A DNA stretch of 64,000 bases from the NCBI RefSeq assembly GCF_003334815.1, contig NZ_QOWO01000002.1; one strand, 5' to 3'. Every line of letters starts with the position of its first letter. Position 1 is the stretch's first letter. The translations under genes were made by a program, and so were the position numbers. The DNA is from Escherichia coli (lineage in GTDB: Bacteria > Pseudomonadota > Gammaproteobacteria > Enterobacterales > Enterobacteriaceae). The notes below the pieces were generated by a model. It was given only the letters and a program-made list of their open reading frames with translations, was not told the origin of the DNA and did no database searches. Positions 1-21,567 of this stretch are shown piece by piece.

Positions 1-303
1 TCGAAACGTACTCTCAACAGTTCGCTTAGGCATGGAAGTTTTGCGGCATTCTGGCTACACAATAACAAGGGAAGACTCACTCGTGGCTGCAACCCTGCTT
101 ACTCAAAATCTATTCACACATGGTTACGTTTTGGGGAAATTATGAGGGGATCTCTCAGCACTTAACAAGTACCAGGTATAAAATATGCCTTATGGACGAG
201 CGGAAGCGTTTTCTGTATCCATAAATGCAAAAGTATTTTGTATGCGTGGTTTTAAATTTATTGATGGTGAATATTAATATTTTTTCTAAGGATAACTAAA
301 AGA

Positions 304-1017
304 ATGGAATCATACTCGCAAAACAGCAATAAATTAGATTTTCAGCACGAGGCCAGGATATTAAACGGTATATGGCTCATTACCGCTTTAGGTTTGGTGG
401 CAACCGCAGGACTAGCCTGGGGAGCTAAGTATCTCGAAATTACGGCAACCAAATATGATTCACCACCAATGTATGTCGCCATAGGGTTATTATTACTTTG
501 TATGTATGGCTTAAGTAAGGATATCAACAAGATAAATGCCGCCATCGCGGGCGTAATATATCTGTTTTTACTCTCTTTGGTGGCGATTGTCGTTGCAAGT
601 TTAGTTCCTGTATATGCCATTATCATCGTGTTCAGCACTGCGGGCGCGATGTTTTTAATCAGTATGCTGGCCGGTTTATTATTTAATGTTGATCCTGGTT
701 CTCACCGTTTTATCATTATGATGACGTTGACAGGGTTGGCCCTGGTAATCATCGTGAATGCGGCATTAATGAGTGAACGGCCCATTTGGGTAATAAGTTG
801 CTTAATGATTGTGTTATGGTCAGGCATTATCTCGCATGGACGAAATAAGCTCCTTGAATTGGCGGGGAAATGCCATAGTGAAGAGTTGTGGAGTCCGGTT
901 CGTTGCGCTTTTACAGGTGCATTAACACTCTATTACTATTTTATCGGCTTCTTTGGGATACTTGCCGCGATAGCTATAACGCTTGTCTGGCAAAGGCATA
1001 CGCGTTTTTTTCATTAG
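304..1017 (+). CDS. ybhM: Inner membrane protein YbhM (BAX-inhibitor-1/YccA-like multi-pass membrane protein)
   Basis: ORF track 237 aa, strongly hydrophobic multi-helix translation; size and position upstream of ybhN-clsB-ybhP match E. coli K-12 order (recalled). Confidence 0.8.
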   Translation: MESYSQNSNKLDFQHEARILNGIWLITALGLVATAGLAWGAKYLEITATKYDSPPMYVAIGLLLLCMYGLSKDINKINAAIAGVIYLFLLSLVAIVVASLVPVYAIIIVFSTAGAMFLISMLAGLLFNVDPGSHRFIIMMTLTGLALVIIVNAALMSERPIWVISCLMIVLWSGIISHGRNKLLELAGKCHSEELWSPVRCAFTGALTLYYYFIGFFGILAAIAITLVWQRHTRFFH

Positions 1018-1052
1018 CCGTAAATGCACATACTAAAGAACTTAACTAAACT

Positions 1053-2009
1053 TCACATCGCCGCTTCATTTTTCGCCCGTAGCTTCTTCGCCTGGCTTTC
1101 CAGCAACAGGTAACAGATCAGCGCCAGCAGCAGTGGGATAAAGTAATACAGCACACGGTAAGCGAGTAGGGCGGCGATAATTGTACCTTTGGAGGTATGC
1201 TCCCCAGCCAGTAGTGCGATAAACACCGCTTCCAGCACACCGATCCCCGCCGGAATATGCACGATGACGCCAGCAATACTACTAACCAGTAACACGCCCA
1301 GTACAAAGAAATAGTTCACGCTTTGACCAAGTAACAGCCAGATAATCGCCCCCATTACCATCCAGTTAACGCTGGAAATCAGCATCTGAGCGAGGGCGAA
1401 TTTCCATGAAGGCAGCACCAGCTTTTGCCCTTTGATGGTCATATGGCGGTGCTTCGCGAAAGCGCAAAACCACAAATAAACCGCGATAATCATCAGTAAG
1501 CCAATGCCGAGAATACGCAGCGTAGTTTGATCGACATACCAGTGATCCGGCAACTCCACCACGCCTGCGGTAAAGATAATCCCTGCCAGTAAAATGTAGC
1601 CCAGCCAGTTGGTGGTAATACTGAGCGAGAAAATCCGCGTAATAGTGCTACCGGGCAACCCCAGACGAGAGTACAAACGATAGCGCATACCAATGCCGCC
1701 GACCCAGGTACTGAGCGTCAGGTTGAAGGCGTAGCAGATAAACGACACCAGCATCACCTGGCGCTTCGCCAGTTTGTGACCGCAGTAAAAGCGGGCGAGC
1801 AGGTCATAGCAGCCGTAAATCAGATAGCTGACGACCACCAGCCCGACCGCACTAAGCAGCGCAACGCGATTGTAGTCGCGGATGACCTTCCAGACCTCTT
1901 CCCAGTCCACTTTTTTGGCGTAGACCACCAGCAACACAATCACCGCGATAAAAAACAGCCAGGTGAGGATCTTCTTTGCTAAGCGCCAGCGCGGGTGTGA
2001 TTTACTCAT
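1053..2009 (-). CDS. ybhN: UPF0104 inner membrane protein YbhN (LPG-synthase-TM-like domain)
   Basis: ORF track 318 aa, polytopic membrane protein; start codon shares 1 nt with clsB stop (TGATG). Confidence 0.85.
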   Translation of the reverse strand: MSKSHPRWRLAKKILTWLFFIAVIVLLVVYAKKVDWEEVWKVIRDYNRVALLSAVGLVVVSYLIYGCYDLLARFYCGHKLAKRQVMLVSFICYAFNLTLSTWVGGIGMRYRLYSRLGLPGSTITRIFSLSITTNWLGYILLAGIIFTAGVVELPDHWYVDQTTLRILGIGLLMIIAVYLWFCAFAKHRHMTIKGQKLVLPSWKFALAQMLISSVNWMVMGAIIWLLLGQSVNYFFVLGVLLVSSIAGVIVHIPAGIGVLEAVFIALLAGEHTSKGTIIAALLAYRVLYYFIPLLLALICYLLLESQAKKLRAKNEAAM

Positions 2010-3250
2010 CAGGGTTTTACCCCCGTGTTTTCAGTTTCTACCCGATCCTGCGTTTCCATTGTCGGTTGTGCGGGCGGATCAACCTGCGCCAGACGTGGCG
2101 TGTGTGCCGGAAGCCAGCCAACCAGCGCCGGGAAGTGGCGTAAAAAGTGGAACGCCAGCACGCTTTTGGTCAGGTTCCACCAGGTGCGTTTGGGCAGCAT
2201 GGTTTCATCCACCTGCTGACAATCTGCGGCAATAATGCCGTTCAGATTATCGCGCAGCGTCTGGTTAAAATGACGATCGTGGATGATGACATTTGCTTCG
2301 AGATTCAGTGACAAACTGAGCGGATCGAGATTACTGGACCCTACTGTCGCCCAGTGATCGTCCATCAATGCCACTTTGCCGTGGAGCGGGCGGCGGCGGT
2401 ACTCAAAAACCTGAACGCCGCCTTTAACCAGATAGTTATACAGCAAGCGCGCACCGACTCTGACAATCGGCATATCCGGTTCGCCCTGAATGATCAGTTT
2501 GATCCGCACCCCGCGCCGTGCCGCTTTACGCAAGGCGTGTAAAAATCGATAGCCGGGGAAGAAGTAGGCGTTGGCGATAATCACTTCCCGCCGCGCCTGA
2601 GTGAGCATTTTCAAATAATGGCGTTCAATATCATCGCGATGTTCTTCGTTATCGCGCCAGACCAGCAATACCTGCGCTTCTCCCGGCTGGCGGTTCTCTT
2701 CCGCTTTGTGATGACGTCGCCACCAGCGTCGTGCCGCGCTCTGTCCAGGCAGGTTTTCCAGCTCAAACTGGAGAATATCTTCGACAATCGGCCCTTCAAG
2801 GCGTACCGCGTAATCCTGTTTAGCCTCTGGACCGTAGCTGGACATATGCTCGGCGGAGTAATTCAGCCCGCCAATAAAGGCTATACGCGCGTCGATCACC
2901 ACAATTTTGCGATGCATCCGGCGAAACACATTGGTGCGCATACCAAAAAGGCGAGGGCGGGGATCGTAGTAGCGGAACACTACGCCAGCTGCCGTCAGTT
3001 CATTGACAAACTCATCGCTGAGATCCGGCGAACCGTAGCCATCCAGCAAGACTTCCGCTTTAACCCCGCGTTGCGCTGCTGCCAGTAGTGCCGCATGCAG
3101 TTGTTTGCCGACGTCATCCTCAAACCAGATAAACGTTTCAAGAATGATGCGTTCTTGTGCCTCGCCAATCGCCTTAAACACCGCGGGATAATATTGCTCG
3201 CCGTTTTCCAGCAACTGGATCTTATTGCCTTCGCGCCAGCTACATTTCAT
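2009..3250 (-). CDS. clsB: Cardiolipin synthase B (phospholipase D superfamily)
   Basis: ORF track 413 aa; two HKD motifs readable (HRKIVVID...; HGKVALMDD...SSNLD). Confidence 0.9.
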
Positions 3251-16945: not shown

Positions 16946-16947
<2 letters not shown>

Positions 16948-16976
16948 AAAAAAGCCCGTCCAGTGGCGGACGGGCA
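16946..16976 (-). terminator. Intrinsic terminator (reverse strand, after ybiJ/REP cluster; may also act on hcxB)
   Basis: GCCCGTCC...GGACGGGC hairpin preceded on + strand by A8 (U8 on reverse strand). Confidence 0.65.
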
Positions 16977-17054
16977 AACAAGGGTAACATAGGATCAATG
17001 AGGGTTAGAGCATATGCGTCTGTCGGCAAACAGACAGGGAAATACTTGTGCTGG

Positions 17055-17172
17055 ACGTAGCGTAAACGCCTGATCCGTCCAACGGTTCGGATTTTGTAGG
17101 CCTGATAAGACGCGGTAGCGTCGCATCAGGCATCTGTTGCCGGATGCGGCGTAAACGCCTTATCCGTCCTAC
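17055..17172. repeat. REP (repetitive extragenic palindrome) cluster between hcxB and ybiJ
   Basis: Repeated GCCTGAT...CGCATCAGGC and TGCCGGATGCGGCGTAAACGCCTTATCCG units. Confidence 0.8.
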
Positions 17173-17175
17173 GAA

Positions 17176-17436
17176 TTACTTATAAATTACCGCAGTACCG
17201 CTTAATTTATTGTTGTTGGTGGCGGAAGTGATGCTGTATCCACTGGCACCGGCTGCCGCGGCTTTCTCAGCCAGTTTCGCTTCCAGGGCATCGAGGGTGG
17301 ATGCGCCATCGGCAGAAACCACGCCGATTTTATTCATGTTCTGTGCCTGGGATGCCGTTACCGGTTCCGCCGCGAACACGCCAAATGACAGAGTTGAAAG
17401 AGCCATAGCAGCAACAACAGTATTGATAGTTTTCAT
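17176..17436 (-). CDS. ybiJ: Small secreted DUF1471/YhcN-family protein YbiJ
   Basis: ORF track 86 aa; signal peptide; clear paralogue of mcbA in this window. Confidence 0.9.
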   Translation of the reverse strand: MKTINTVVAAMALSTLSFGVFAAEPVTASQAQNMNKIGVVSADGASTLDALEAKLAEKAAAAGASGYSITSATNNNKLSGTAVIYK

Positions 17437-17700
17437 AATTAATCTCTCGCAGGTGATTTTTGTATAAGTGACGTTGTTTCGTCGATGTGATGAGTATCAC
17501 GTTTTTTTACGAGAGATAAAATCGAAGAGAATTGACCGCCTTGTTCAAATAAATTGATTGATATCTAACCTACTGATAAACCATTTATTTGTTGTACTTA
17601 TGAACTTGTTTTATACCGCGTGGCAGTCACAGCAGCGTTAAAGGCACGGAATGACACGCAAAATACAAATTATACTCGCTATGCATCTCGCCAGTTGTAG

Positions 17701-17967
17701 TTAACGTAACTGGCTGTCTTTCGAACCTCTGCGATTATATCCTGTATAAGCTGGTTTTTGTAAATCTTTCTCCTGCTGACAATGAATACATAAGCGCACG
17801 CCAGGAATGGCTTCCCGACGGGCCTGCGGGATGGGGGCACCGCACTCTTCACATTCATCCAGGCTTTCGCCGCGCGGAATTTCACCCCGAGCGCGGGCAA
17901 TCGCATCTTCAATTGTACTGTTGATCTGTTCGTTGACGGCGTCATCGTTAGCCCAACCGGATGCCAT
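17701..17967 (-). CDS. ybiI: DksA/TraR-type C4 zinc-finger protein YbiI
   Basis: ORF track 88 aa; CxxC...CxxC (CEECG...CIHCQ). Confidence 0.85.
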   Translation of the reverse strand: MASGWANDDAVNEQINSTIEDAIARARGEIPRGESLDECEECGAPIPQARREAIPGVRLCIHCQQEKDLQKPAYTGYNRRGSKDSQLR

Positions 17968-18040
17968 ATCGACCTCCCCATATCAATACTTGTACAGTTA
18001 AGTGTAGCTAATCCAGGGACGAACTCGGGCAGTTCAAGCA

Positions 18041-18718
18041 TCAGATCTCCGACCATTCCCGCAGCAGATTATGATAAAGATTAAGCAGCGACAGGATCTC
18101 TTCACTTTCGCCGTAGCGGCTTTTCAGCGACTGAATATTGTTGTCCAGTTCAAACAGCATGGCGCGCTTTTTATCATCGCGGATCATCGACTGGATCCAC
18201 ATAAATGATGCCACTCGTACGCCGCGGGTTACGGGTGTCACGCAATGCAGGCTGCTGGAGGGATACAACACGAGATCGCCTGCCGGGAGTTTTACCCGAT
18301 GTTGTCCGAAGGTGTCATTAACGACCAGTTCGCCGCCGTCGTAGCTTTGTGGATCGCTTAAAAACAGCGTGGCAGAAAGGTCAGTACGCATCCAGCCGTT
18401 TTGTGGATGGCTGCGTACTGCGCCATCCACATGGAAACCATAGGTTTCATTGTTCTGATAGCGATTAAACAGCGGCGTGGAAAGGGTACGCGGCAAGGCC
18501 GCGGCAAAGAATAAAGCATGTTGGTTAACCGCGTTCAGCACCTCATTTTGCAGGGCGGCGTATAACGTGCTGTGGGTGTCGACCTGTTGATTGTTCTTAA
18601 CTTGCGCACCTTGTGCGCCGGTGGTGACGCGTCCATCCACCCATTCGGCTTGTTCCAGTTGTTCGCGAAAACGAGCGACGTCCTGTGGCGATAACACGCC
18701 GGGAATGTGGTACATCAT
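18041..18718 (-). CDS. ybiX: PKHD-type Fe(II)/2-oxoglutarate-dependent hydroxylase YbiX (PiuC-like)
   Basis: ORF track 237 aa; start trimmed to MMYHIPGV (225 aa); HxD motif (FHVDGA); 41 nt downstream of fiu. Confidence 0.85.
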
Positions 18719-18759
18719 ACAATTTCTCCAAAAAGTGGGGCCTGCGCCCCACATCTGAA

Positions 18760-21042
18760 TCAGAAATGCATATTGGCTGTGAGCAAGAAGGTTCTTGGCT
18801 CGCCCGGGTGATAACGGTAGCCGCTCTTGTTGATTGAGGCGACGTAATCGGTATCAAACAGGTTGTAAACGTTTAGCTGGAAGTCGAGATTGCGATTAAC
18901 TCGATACCCCAGTTTGGCATCGGCGACCCAGTAACCTTCGGTAAACGCTGGCGTTCCCACCGCGCCGTCTGAACCTTTATGCATACTGCCGATATAGCGT
19001 GCGCCCGCGCCAACAGAGATATCGTCGGTTGCCTGATATTGGCTCCATAAGGTGAAGGCGTGCTCCGGGGTATACGGCAGCGATGAGGAACCATCCTGGG
19101 CAACATCTTTGCCGTTTTTGATGGTTGCTTTTTGCTGGGTATAGCCGCCAATCACCTGCCACGCGGGAGTGATATTCCCGGCCACGGATATCTCATAGCC
19201 TTCGACGCGTTTCTTACCGTATTGCGAGTAAGTTCCGTCATCATTTTGCTCAACTTCATTTTCGATATCAGTGCGGAACAGCGCGGCGGTGAGCAACAGA
19301 CGTTTATCCAGAACCTGCCATTTGGTGCCAATCTCGCTGGTGTTGGCTTTTTGCGGTTTAAAATCGGTGCGGTTGGCACTGTTACCGCTGCCAGACTGCG
19401 CAAGGGCGAAGTTGTTGCCGCCCGGAGGCTGCTGGGAAACGGCATAGTTAATATAGACATTGCCGTTTTCCGTCAGGTGATACAGCGCCCCGGCTTTCCA
19501 GTTCATCAGATTGCCCGACTTGGCGGTGTCGACGGTGGTGACCGGAGAACCTTTTGCCACACCAGTTGGGCAGGTGATGGCACCGCGTCCGCTGCCGCCG
19601 CAGGCGGTGGCACTGTCATATTCAGTATGATAATTATCCAGACGGATCCCGCCGTTCAGCTCAAAATCACGGGTGATTTGCAGCGTATCAAAGGCGTAAA
19701 TTGCGAAGGTATCCGTCTGACCATTGGCGTTTGCGCCGTTGCGCGTCAGGCCGCCGGGATGAATGCTGCTGTCAGGATGATAAATATTTACCGCGGGTAA
19801 CGTCACCGGATTAACGCCGTAGTTAGTCTGCGTTTCACGGGTAAATTCCACGCCGGTACTGACATCATGACCGATAGAACCGGTATAGAACGTCGAGGTC
19901 AGGTTGGTCTGGTTGGTGAGAATTTTATTACTCACATCTTTGGTATTCGCCGTGCGTGACCAGGTCCAGCTATTCACATCGCTGGTGGGCTGAGTAATAT
20001 TCGACGCCCCGCCCATAATCGCCGTCATCAGGTAATCCTGCTTTACGCGCGACCAACGGGTAGTATTGCGAATGGTGGTGTTATCGTTGATGTCGTGCTC
20101 AAAACGCATGGTGGCGGTGTCGGTGGTCGAATCGTCGTAATCGGAATCCGTGCCGTAAAAGTTATGAGTATCAACTTTTCCGGAATGATTCAGGGCCGCC
20201 GTTCCCGCAGATGGGGCAGAATAGCCCGGCAAACCGATGGTCGGAATGCCGCCGTCTGGCGTGTTGTGCTGGGTGACATGCAGATAATTAAGATACAAAC
20301 GATTCGCTGTACCAAGGCCAAAAGCGACAGAAGGGGCGACGCCGTAACGCTCATTTTTGACTTTGTCGCGTCCGGCATCGTGCGTTTTTTCGCCCATTAC
20401 ATTCAGGCGCACCGCGGTGGTATCACCAATGACCTGATTGACGTCCAGCGTGCCGCGGCGGAACCAGGCGCTGCCAATACTGGCGGAGGCGTCAATGCCG
20501 GAATCATTGCGCGGCTGCTTGCTGATCATATTGATCGAGCCTGTCGGTGCGCTGCGCCCGTAGTCGGTGCCGGACGGCCCTTTAATCACTTCGACCTGCT
20601 CGGTATTGAAGGTGTCGCGCGAGACGCTGCCGATATCGCGAATGCCATCAATATAAATACTGTTAGAGGTATCGGCACCACGCATATAAATGGCGTCGCC
20701 AGTGGTGGAGTTACCGTTCTCACCCGCAAAAAACGCACCCACGCCGGGGACGTTTTTGAGCGCGTCGGTAAGGTTGGTTGCGCCCTGATCTTTAATCACT
20801 TGTTCAGAAATTACCGTCATCGTGCGGGTAGTATCCGCTACCGGACGCGAGAATTTCGGATCGGCAGATTGTTGTGGCGCATAAAGCGAAGGCGTTGATG
20901 CTTCGACAACCAGCGTGTCATCCGCGTTAGTTTGCCCTTCGGCGGCGAGTGCCTGAGCCACAGGCGTGATGCCAATACAAAGACCGGCAAAGAACGTGAG
21001 CGAATGAAATTGTCTGGCAGGGAAATTGCGATTGTTTTCCAT
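18760..21042 (-). CDS. fiu: TonB-dependent catecholate siderophore receptor Fiu
   Basis: ORF track 760 aa; signal peptide, TonB box (DTLVVEA), C-terminal aromatic residue (...NMHF); Fur box upstream. Confidence 0.95.
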
Positions 21043-21145
21043 TTTGCAGGTGACTTTTTCTTATATGTTGAAATTTTCACTGCCACGAGAAAGCCTCTCT
21101 GCGGATGCGATGCCACTGTTAATCCCGTGATAGTGCTCGTGAAAG

Positions 21146-21172
21146 TGATAATAATTTTGATAAGCATTATCA
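21146..21172 (-). promoter_or_regulatory. Fur box in fiu promoter
   Basis: TGATAATAATTTTGATAAGCATTATCA: GATAAT-type hexamer repeats ~100 nt upstream of fiu start. Confidence 0.75.
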
Positions 21173-21306
21173 CTTGGAGCGATTTTCTATCACCCATTGC
21201 GCGAAAAAGAAATACATTTATTTACATTGAGTTCATATTTGATGTTTTTTGATTACAAAACAGACGAAAACTGCATCCAGAGGCGAATGCAGTTACGTTG
21301 GTGGGG

Positions 21307-21567
21307 TTATTTGTAGATGGTTGCAGTACCGAACATCTGGTCATTTCCGCCTGCGGAATTAATGACATAACCTTTCGCGCCTTGTTCGCGCGCTTTTTCT
21401 GCCAGTTTATCCTCCAGATCGCTTAGGTTTGATGCGCCAGTTGCCGAAACGGTACCGGCGGGCCGTAGCTGACCGCTGTCCAGGTTACTCATCGGTTGCG
21501 CGGCATAAGCCGTGAGAGAGATTCCGCTCAGGACGGTGGCAATCAGTAGTGTGAGGCACTTTTTCAT
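21307..21567 (-). CDS. mcbA: Small secreted YhcN-family protein McbA (YbiM), colanic acid/biofilm related
   Basis: ORF track 134 aa; start trimmed to MKKCLTLLIA (86 aa, signal peptide); paralogue of ybiJ. Confidence 0.85.
   Translation of the reverse strand: MKKCLTLLIATVLSGISLTAYAAQPMSNLDSGQLRPAGTVSATGASNLSDLEDKLAEKAREQGAKGYVINSAGGNDQMFGTATIYK

Follow-up and report, generated by a model that had tools for sequence, protein, structure and literature searches.

The closest described relative of the locus treated here is the cciT-cciO operon of Caulobacter crescentus, in which the gene for a Fur-repressed, Fiu-like transporter is followed by the gene for a YbiX-family dioxygenase (Hernandez-Ortiz et al. 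2025, PMC12004947; bioRxiv 10.1101/2024.11.25.625226). Those studies showed that the two genes are operonic and Fur-regulated, and that CciT function strictly and specifically requires CciO, the CciT protein still being produced without it. A survey across KEGG found a cciT homolog next to 87.7% of cciO homologs, and 12% of cciO genes lack a neighbouring receptor gene. Fiu and its relatives PiuA and CciT serve as routes of entry for catechol 'Trojan horse' antibiotics, cefiderocol being one example of this class; CciT, unlike the E. coli Fiu system, does not import cefiderocol. Losing the adjacent dioxygenase adds to resistance, and how this enzyme acts is therefore a clinically relevant question.

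Here we analyzed the E. coli counterpart, fiu-ybiX-ybiI, in a stretch of 64,000 nucleotides (nt) of E. coli DNA (contig NZ_QOWO01000002.1 of assembly GCF_003334815.1), hereafter the window, to whose positions all coordinates refer unless stated. The Caulobacter operon carries the small RNA (sRNA) gene CCNA_R0097 and lacks ybiI, whereas the E. coli locus has a hairpin terminator in the spacer after the receptor gene and ybiI downstream. This is the known, already described iron-starvation (iron-repressed) locus of E. coli, which an earlier note, made from the sequence, had read as one Fur-controlled unit. Our analysis indicates that fiu-ybiX-ybiI is probably a graded unit and not a flat operon; the main correction thus concerns architecture: fiu is followed by a leaky terminator, and ybiI is autonomous.

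The region is part of the E. coli chromosome, at least 80% of a 4-kb query being held by 5418 of 5426 complete genomes. The MG1655 annotation has the identical gene order mcbA, fiu (b0805), ybiX (b0804), ybiI (b0803) and ybiJ, and all five genes lie on the minus strand of the window, as do the features of the unit described below. The fiu gene (18760-21042) encodes a TonB-dependent catecholate siderophore receptor of 760 amino acids, whose residues 1-760 match the NCBIfam equivalog NF007349 at 1507.6 bits (cutoff 686). It is followed by ybiX (18041-18718), encoding a cytoplasmic Fe(II)/2-oxoglutarate (2OG) dioxygenase of the PiuC/CciO family (225 amino acids), and by ybiI (17701-17967), encoding a DksA/TraR-family C4 zinc-finger protein of 88 amino acids (equivalog NF008243, PF01258). 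The earlier note had placed the start of ybiX 41 nt past fiu, and from the fiu stop codon to the ybiX start (MMYHIPG) the gap measures exactly that; the ybiX-ybiI spacer is 73 nt.

The fiu-ybiX spacer contains a predicted intrinsic terminator (18730-18752), GUGGGGC-GCAG-GCCCCAC followed by UUUUU. With its flanking codons the 41-nt spacer reads TGA-ttcagat-GTGGGGC-GCAG-GCCCCAC-TTTTT-GGAGAAATTGT-ATG. The terminator scan returned a 7-bp stem with six GC pairs, a GCAG loop and a run of five U, located 11 nt upstream of the ybiX start codon, and the fold of a 60-nt spacer fragment reached -24.6 kcal/mol (z = -3.9), with none of 200 shuffles equally stable. Published Term-seq data (Adams et al. 2021, supplementary file 1) place a 'primary' fiu 3' end at MG1655 839219, which corresponds to window position 18730 (offset 820489), the fifth and last U of the run. 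The element therefore combines a GC hairpin and an adjoining U-tract with an RNA 3' end inside that tract, the last taken from the literature. The Term-seq file covers growth in lysogeny broth (LB) to an optical density (OD) of 0.4 or 2.0 and in M63 minimal medium, and its table holds curated dominant peaks only; as the fiu row stands in its third block, we infer that it comes from the M63 sample.

We then compared 80 genome loci encoding YbiX relatives, which include 45 Enterobacterales loci with an intact junction and 34 non-enterobacterial ones. A spacer hairpin is predicted in all 45 Enterobacterales loci, with energies of -8.9 to -28.8 kcal/mol (-15 or stronger in 41 of them), and lies 13-37 nt, mostly 15-22 nt, from the ybiX ATG. 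Stem sequences vary by lineage and are of at least eight kinds, among them GUGGGGC, CGGGGCG, GGGGGGC, GCCGCAG, CCGCAGC and CCACCUG, while the loops are stable tetraloops in most loci. In Pseudocitrobacter, a long palindrome resembling repetitive extragenic palindromic (REP) elements takes the place of the short hairpin (loci L017, L024 and L025 are among the spacers noted; L numbers denote loci of our collection, followed where needed by positions within them). The tract after the hairpin holds from 1 to 7 U per 8 nt across loci, so that the conserved element of the spacer is the hairpin, which in some genera may give partial termination or protect a 3' end. A hairpin with a U-tract was also found in seven betaproteobacterial loci, while others have gaps of 6-25 nt without one.

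RNAalifold found no consensus structure on a MAFFT alignment of 34 fiu-ybiX spacers, nor on a retry with trimmed hairpins, because MAFFT had set the differing stems out of register. Hairpins were therefore scored sequence by sequence, a procedure that yields standard pairs by design; what counts as evidence is the prediction of a strong hairpin at one position in every Enterobacterales locus despite differing sequences.

Since a terminator bearing the main fiu 3' end stands between fiu and ybiX, we conclude that ybiX is expressed by read-through of a probably leaky terminator. The purpose of read-through could be to set a high ratio of receptor to enzyme. Dependence of ybiX on upstream transcription is supported by a cefiderocol-resistant, laboratory-evolved mutant in which ISKpn8 is inserted in the fiu-ybiX spacer. 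When a 300-nt junction probe was compared with complete E. coli genomes, 89 of 5420 (~1.6%) had no contiguous fiu-ybiX junction. Insertions in the 41-nt spacer, known in the laboratory-evolved resistant mutant and in this ~1.6% of genomes, would silence ybiX with both genes intact.

Natural insertions at this place were seen individually as well. An IS421 element (IS4-like) sits exactly within the spacer (18719-18759) in E. coli O157:H16 98-3133 (L085:1519-2908) and in other top megablast hits. In Escherichia sp. MOD1-EC7003 and E. whittamii, an insertion of ~170 nt with REP-like palindromes lies within the terminator hairpin (L002:3786-4000 and L004:3786-4000).

Other candidate elements around ybiX were considered and set aside. 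Translational coupling, with the last codons of fiu pairing with the ribosome-binding site of ybiX, was predicted in the E. coli fold and in 24 of 37 sequences; the pairing probability of 0.53 fell only to 0.46 when the 5' 24 nt were shuffled, and the pairing is therefore an effect of composition and not a specific structure. A hairpin inside the ybiX reading frame (18364-18434; -27.7 kcal/mol, z = -2.7) is followed by CUUUCU and contains a Term-seq 'internal' 3' end at MG1655 838863 (window 18374). It was rejected as a conserved element, its two variable stem positions pairing in only 21 of 38 and 24 of 38 relatives, and codon constraints may explain it. A promoter belonging to ybiX alone is hinted at solely by a weak sigma-E peak inside fiu, reported from SELEX (systematic evolution of ligands by exponential enrichment), and this candidate was likewise not retained.

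Upstream of fiu, the earlier note had described a GATAAT-repeat Fur box, a wording that is loose but fair. The sequence, GTGATAATGCTTATCAAAATTATTATCAC, forms a tandem Fur box (21146-21172) of two overlapping 7-1-7 sites, TGATAATGCTTATCA and TCAAAATTATTATCA; relative to the 7-1-7 form TGATAATnATTATCA, the site at 21158-21172 has one mismatch and that at 21146-21160 has two. Five 7-1-7 matches occur in the whole window against 0.25 expected, no shuffle reaching five, and the abutting pair is the sole instance within it. The classical 19-mer Fur consensus GATAATGATAATCATTATC gave no match at up to three mismatches and was rejected as a description of the box, which the 7-1-7 form fits. A sigma-70-like promoter is predicted at 21166-21193 (GTGATA, 16 nt, GATAAT; 9 of 12 matches in a consensus scan), with its -10 GATAAT inside the Fur box, and GTGATA-16-GATAAT is our candidate for the fiu promoter. 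Among the 45 Enterobacterales loci, nearly all have a pair of Fur sites at about -130/-118 relative to the fiu ATG, and every one has at least one site with two or fewer mismatches. Fur control of fiu is thus supported at the level of sequence, and published work agrees with it: fiu belongs to the core Fur pan-regulon and rises when fur is deleted. Within fiu itself, published Term-seq in minimal medium lists an internal 3' end at 20965, 77 nt into the gene and in the signal-peptide region, where the local fold is no better than that of shuffles (z = 0.0).

A flat operon, as assumed in the earlier note and commonly in databases, in which the fiu promoter would yield all three genes in fixed proportion and their proteins would cooperate in catecholate iron uptake, has several observations in its favour. 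The genes share a strand and are separated by 41 and 73 nt, and in the literature fiu, ybiX and ybiI all belong to the Fur-1 iModulon, are all induced by serum, and are referred to as a (Fur-regulated) operon, as fiu-ybiX or as fiu-ybiX-ybiI. In E. coli, terminator scanning and folding predicted no terminator between ybiX and ybiI. The spacer after fiu, with its hairpin, U5 and main fiu 3' end, and with a strong hairpin at the same place in every enterobacterial relative, speaks against fixed proportions, and so does the promoter found before ybiI.

This promoter is represented by an extended -10 element at 17998-18008, GCTACACTTAA, in the ybiX-ybiI spacer. It is a full match to KCTAYRCTTAA, which we take to be the extended sigma-S -10 consensus, and its core -10 is GCTACACT. 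A -10 of the CTAYAMT type is kept in most genera that carry ybiI, with divergence in Leclercia and Silvania, and the element is identical in Salmonella. Experimentally, Peano et al. 2015 reported a sigma-S peak at ybiI in chromatin immunoprecipitation sequencing, rpoS-dependent ybiI expression by quantitative reverse-transcription PCR, and an open complex at the ybiI promoter, seen by potassium permanganate footprinting, that is favoured by sigma-S holoenzyme. Genomic SELEX also gave a strong RpoS peak in this spacer.

The 3' ends of the transcripts point in the same direction. The 'primary' Term-seq 3' end of ybiI, at MG1655 838167 (window 17678), is listed, and abundant, in LB at both OD 0.4 and OD 2.0, with a score that rises from 63,827 to 124,308, whereas this table of curated dominant peaks lists no fiu 3' end in either LB sample. 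The 3' end region of the ybiI mRNA (17678-17714) includes a hairpin over the stop codon (inverted repeat at 17690-17714), whose fold was no better than those of shuffles. Read-through from fiu-ybiX best explains why ybiI responds to Fur in E. coli, where no terminator is predicted after ybiX. The earlier note had regarded independent, Fur-insensitive transcription of ybiX or ybiI as evidence that would count against a single unit, and half of this was found: ybiI is transcribed independently, yet it responds to Fur in E. coli. The claim of one Fur-controlled unit stands for the Fur box, the shared iModulon and the serum response, and yields where the fiu terminator and the sigma-S promoter of ybiI are concerned.

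Gene content across the 80 loci also bears on the flat operon. A ybiI gene behind ybiX is confined to Escherichia, Citrobacter, Klebsiella/Raoultella, Leclercia, Silvania, Pseudocitrobacter and Enterobacter. Kluyvera has fiu-ybiX-ybiJ without ybiI, and ybiI is absent from the Pantoea, Rouxiella, Serratia and Tatumella loci and from all 34 non-enterobacterial ones. Conversely, Salmonella (L082-L084) has rlmF / ybiI-ybiJ without mcbA, fiu or ybiX, and no Fur site was found in the spacer upstream of its ybiI. Thus, ybiI is separable in evolution in both directions and does not belong to the core of the receptor-dioxygenase module, and its membership of the uptake system should not be taken for granted. 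Taking both sides together, we consider the flat operon unlikely.

Some of these loci show decay in a single genome: ybiI is apparently frameshifted in Escherichia sp. MOD1-EC7003 (L002:4735-4997), Citrobacter sp. Awk 4 retains only the last 42 codons of fiu (L043:3827-3952), and fiu is broken into three frames in Kluyvera genomosp. 3 (L029:1674-3951). In Tatumella sp. JGM91 (L042), no match to Fiu was found 5' of ybiX.

Receptor and dioxygenase genes regularly occur as a pair. Of the 80 loci, 78 have a receptor gene upstream of the YbiX homolog and on its strand, and in 76 the two genes are immediate neighbours. Published genetics adds functional weight, as a ybiX nonsense mutation in E. coli gives resistance to a catechol-peptide nucleic acid conjugate, and the minimum inhibitory concentration (MIC) of cefiderocol rises from 0.12 mg/L in a cirA single mutant to 0.5 mg/L in a cirA ybiX double deletion; with KPC variants, cirA ybiX strains exceed 32 mg/L. 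These data give genetic support to a functional link between dioxygenase and receptor.

YbiX scored 517 bits against its curated NCBIfam model (cutoff 399) and contains the Pfam domains 2OG-FeII_Oxy_3 and PKHD_C. The HxD motif on which the earlier note had based a PKHD/PiuC-like assignment was recovered as H96-V-D98. H96, D98 and H158, which form the iron triad, and the 2OG-binding R168 do not vary among 29 homologs that range down to 48% identity, and an N-terminal AQVKNNQQ and a C-terminal YHNLLR-W are also conserved. The structure model (predicted local distance difference test score, pLDDT, 93.9) matches the PiuC fold, and YbiX looks catalytically competent on these residues and this model. 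Crystal structures exist for the homolog 3DKQ and for PiuC (9GHL, 9QN0-9QN4), PiuC having been crystallised with the 2OG analogue 2,4-pyridinedicarboxylic acid (2,4-PDCA) according to the PDB title; our literature search found no paper describing PiuC entries 9GHL or 9QN0-9QN4. After PiuC, the closest solved folds are protein prolyl hydroxylases; PiuA/PiuC of Pseudomonas aeruginosa and the prolyl hydroxylases PHD/EGLN, Pseudomonas PPHD and OGFOD1/Tpa1/Ofd1 are among the closest known systems; HygX, PolD and SnoK score almost equally. The modelled fold does not settle whether the substrate would be a protein or a small molecule.

Gene neighbourhoods lean toward small-molecule chemistry. Among the 34 non-enterobacterial loci, 14 have, directly behind the gene for the YbiX homolog, a gene of the flavin mononucleotide (FMN)-dependent alpha-hydroxy-acid oxidase/dehydrogenase family, which lies on the same strand after a gap of 0-15 nt (L050:4693-5793, L054:4685-5785, L069:4669-5841 and 11 more, including L051, L053, L058, L060, L061, L065, L067, L071 and L072). 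Matches to the LldD, lactate oxidase and MftD models reach 1e-65 to 1e-81 and stay below their cutoffs; this predicted oxidase is therefore a distinct subfamily. The count of 14 is not a prevalence, as the way in which the scan picks loci biases the sample. Both CciT/CciO papers leave this neighbour unmentioned.

The authors of the published work describe the substrate and mechanism of YbiX/CciO as undefined and raise ligand modification and iron sensing, the same ideas as the earlier note, so that a hydroxylase acting on an imported catecholate or sensing iron is the standing hypothesis in the literature. Our own preference, held tentatively and with slightly less than even confidence, is that YbiX oxidises a small catechol-type molecule, either an imported ligand or an endogenous competitor, whose removal would keep transport by Fiu productive.

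YbiX could instead be a protein hydroxylase acting on a component of the uptake path, either before its export or during it (the Fiu precursor, TonB or ExbBD), or on a translation factor, in which case oxygen, Fe(II) and 2-oxoglutarate would gate the cognate receptor. Such an activity would suit the Caulobacter data, where the requirement is limited to one of four receptors and production of the receptor protein continues when the enzyme is absent, and would account for the fact that loss of ybiX raises the MIC of a drug acting in the periplasm, which cytoplasmic processing of the drug explains poorly. The near-equal scores of the small-molecule oxygenases HygX, PolD and SnoK are a point against it, as are the FMN oxidase in the operon at 14 loci and the occurrence of the enzyme apart from receptors, shown by the 12% of cciO genes already mentioned and by reports of piuC in picocyanobacteria. 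We also know of no modified residue in the structures of Fiu or PiuA, which we count against a protein substrate. On balance, hydroxylation of a protein seems rather unlikely.

A broader proposal would treat YbiX, PiuC and CciO as a switch on the partner transporter that depends on O2, Fe(II) and 2-oxoglutarate, and not as a siderophore processor; the enzyme would hydroxylate a protein of the uptake path, such as the Fiu precursor or the TonB complex, or would destroy an endogenous catechol that blocks the receptor. If true, this would explain why cells that lose an enzyme of the cytoplasm are protected from a drug with a periplasmic site of action, and the leaky terminator would keep the amount of enzyme catalytic in comparison with that of the receptor. 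We regard this proposal as quite improbable.

Equally doubtful is a role of YbiX in making an endogenous iron-binding ligand, the product of its hydroxylation, that Fiu then imports (Model 1 of the Caulobacter study). That cciT and cciO are both needed in defined medium without added siderophore, and that total iron drops in the cciO mutant, would fit such a role in Caulobacter. In E. coli, however, mutation of ybiX confers resistance to exogenous synthetic catechol conjugates and to cefiderocol, which need no endogenous ligand, and a shared secreted product would give no fitness defect in a pooled transposon screen.

The third gene product, YbiI, matches NF008243 at 160.5 bits (cutoff 96) and the zf-dskA_traR domain PF01258 at E = 5e-12, with C39, C42, C60 and C63 invariant, and its structure has been solved by nuclear magnetic resonance (PDB 2KGO). 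As the earlier note had proposed for this gene, next on the same strand, its product carries a C4 zinc finger and is, by sequence, a member of the DksA/TraR zinc-finger family. YbiI resembles TraR of the F plasmid and DksA in sharing the C4 zinc finger and the helix that precedes it, the match to TraR (E = 5e-10, 40% identity) being in register from V11 on. The acidic tip of TraR, D3-x-x-D6-x-A8, aligns with S3, A6 and D8 of YbiI, so that in this alignment YbiI has no DxxDxA motif in register, a conserved WANDDA standing in its place. The TraR subfamily model TIGR02419 scores 59.5, just under its cutoff of 59.7. All YbiI orthologs examined end in an invariant basic tail, GYNRRGSKDSQLR (17701-17742, the last 13 codons and the stop), which is not found in TraR or DksA. 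A 2009 paper calls YbiI a TraR homolog in 'an iron metabolism operon' and states, as data not shown, that its overproduction rescues dksA auxotrophy. By analogy with TraR, and given this homology and this one unpublished remark, YbiI probably binds RNA polymerase in its secondary channel.

The account of the locus that we favour would then run as follows. With iron present, Fe(II)-Fur on the tandem box overlapping the fiu -10 would block transcription, and iron limitation would release it; the box itself is seen in the sequence, while Fur binding and derepression come from the literature. Many transcripts would end at the terminator and give fiu-only mRNA, the remainder reading through into ybiX and then into ybiI. 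Besides this, ybiI is transcribed separately, from the sigma-S promoter that the 73-nt spacer holds. Much receptor and little enzyme would be the stoichiometric purpose of the terminator. YbiX would act as the cytoplasmic dioxygenase needed by Fiu-dependent uptake, and YbiI would act on RNA polymerase at the secondary channel in a TraR-like manner.

Several observations weigh against parts of this account. A peak that is absent from one condition counts for little, the Term-seq table being limited to curated dominant peaks. Several genera have a weak U-tract (1-3 U in Citrobacter and Leclercia), so that the main effect of the hairpin may be protection of a processed 3' end and not termination. 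The drug cefiderocol works in the periplasm, and oxidation of a ligand in the cytoplasm alone fails to explain the resistance of ybiX mutants. In Caulobacter, total iron drops further in the cciO mutant than in the cciT mutant, suggesting that the enzyme does more than serve the transporter, and the position of protein prolyl hydroxylases as the nearest solved folds beyond PiuC weakens the case for a small molecule. For YbiI, the out-of-register acidic tip and the TIGR02419 score below cutoff weaken the comparison with TraR.

The sequence features named in the earlier note were all confirmed, and its interpretation is partly supported: it is broadly right and adds nothing new to the literature, restating a known locus and a standing hypothesis with nothing newly testable. 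The question is what YbiX oxidises, and why an outer-membrane transporter needs a cytoplasmic enzyme, and the finding brings no closer test of it.

No Rfam family matched within the fiu-ybiX-ybiI unit. The unit is bordered on both sides by DUF1471 paralogs that are 47% identical, ybiJ (17176-17436) and mcbA (21307-21567). Beyond ybiJ, on its 3' side, the region of 17099-17169 and 16946-17042 holds a REP-type element that matches Rfam naRNA4 at 78.4 bits (gathering score 59.5), next to the stretch that MG1655 annotates as the sRNA ZbiJ.

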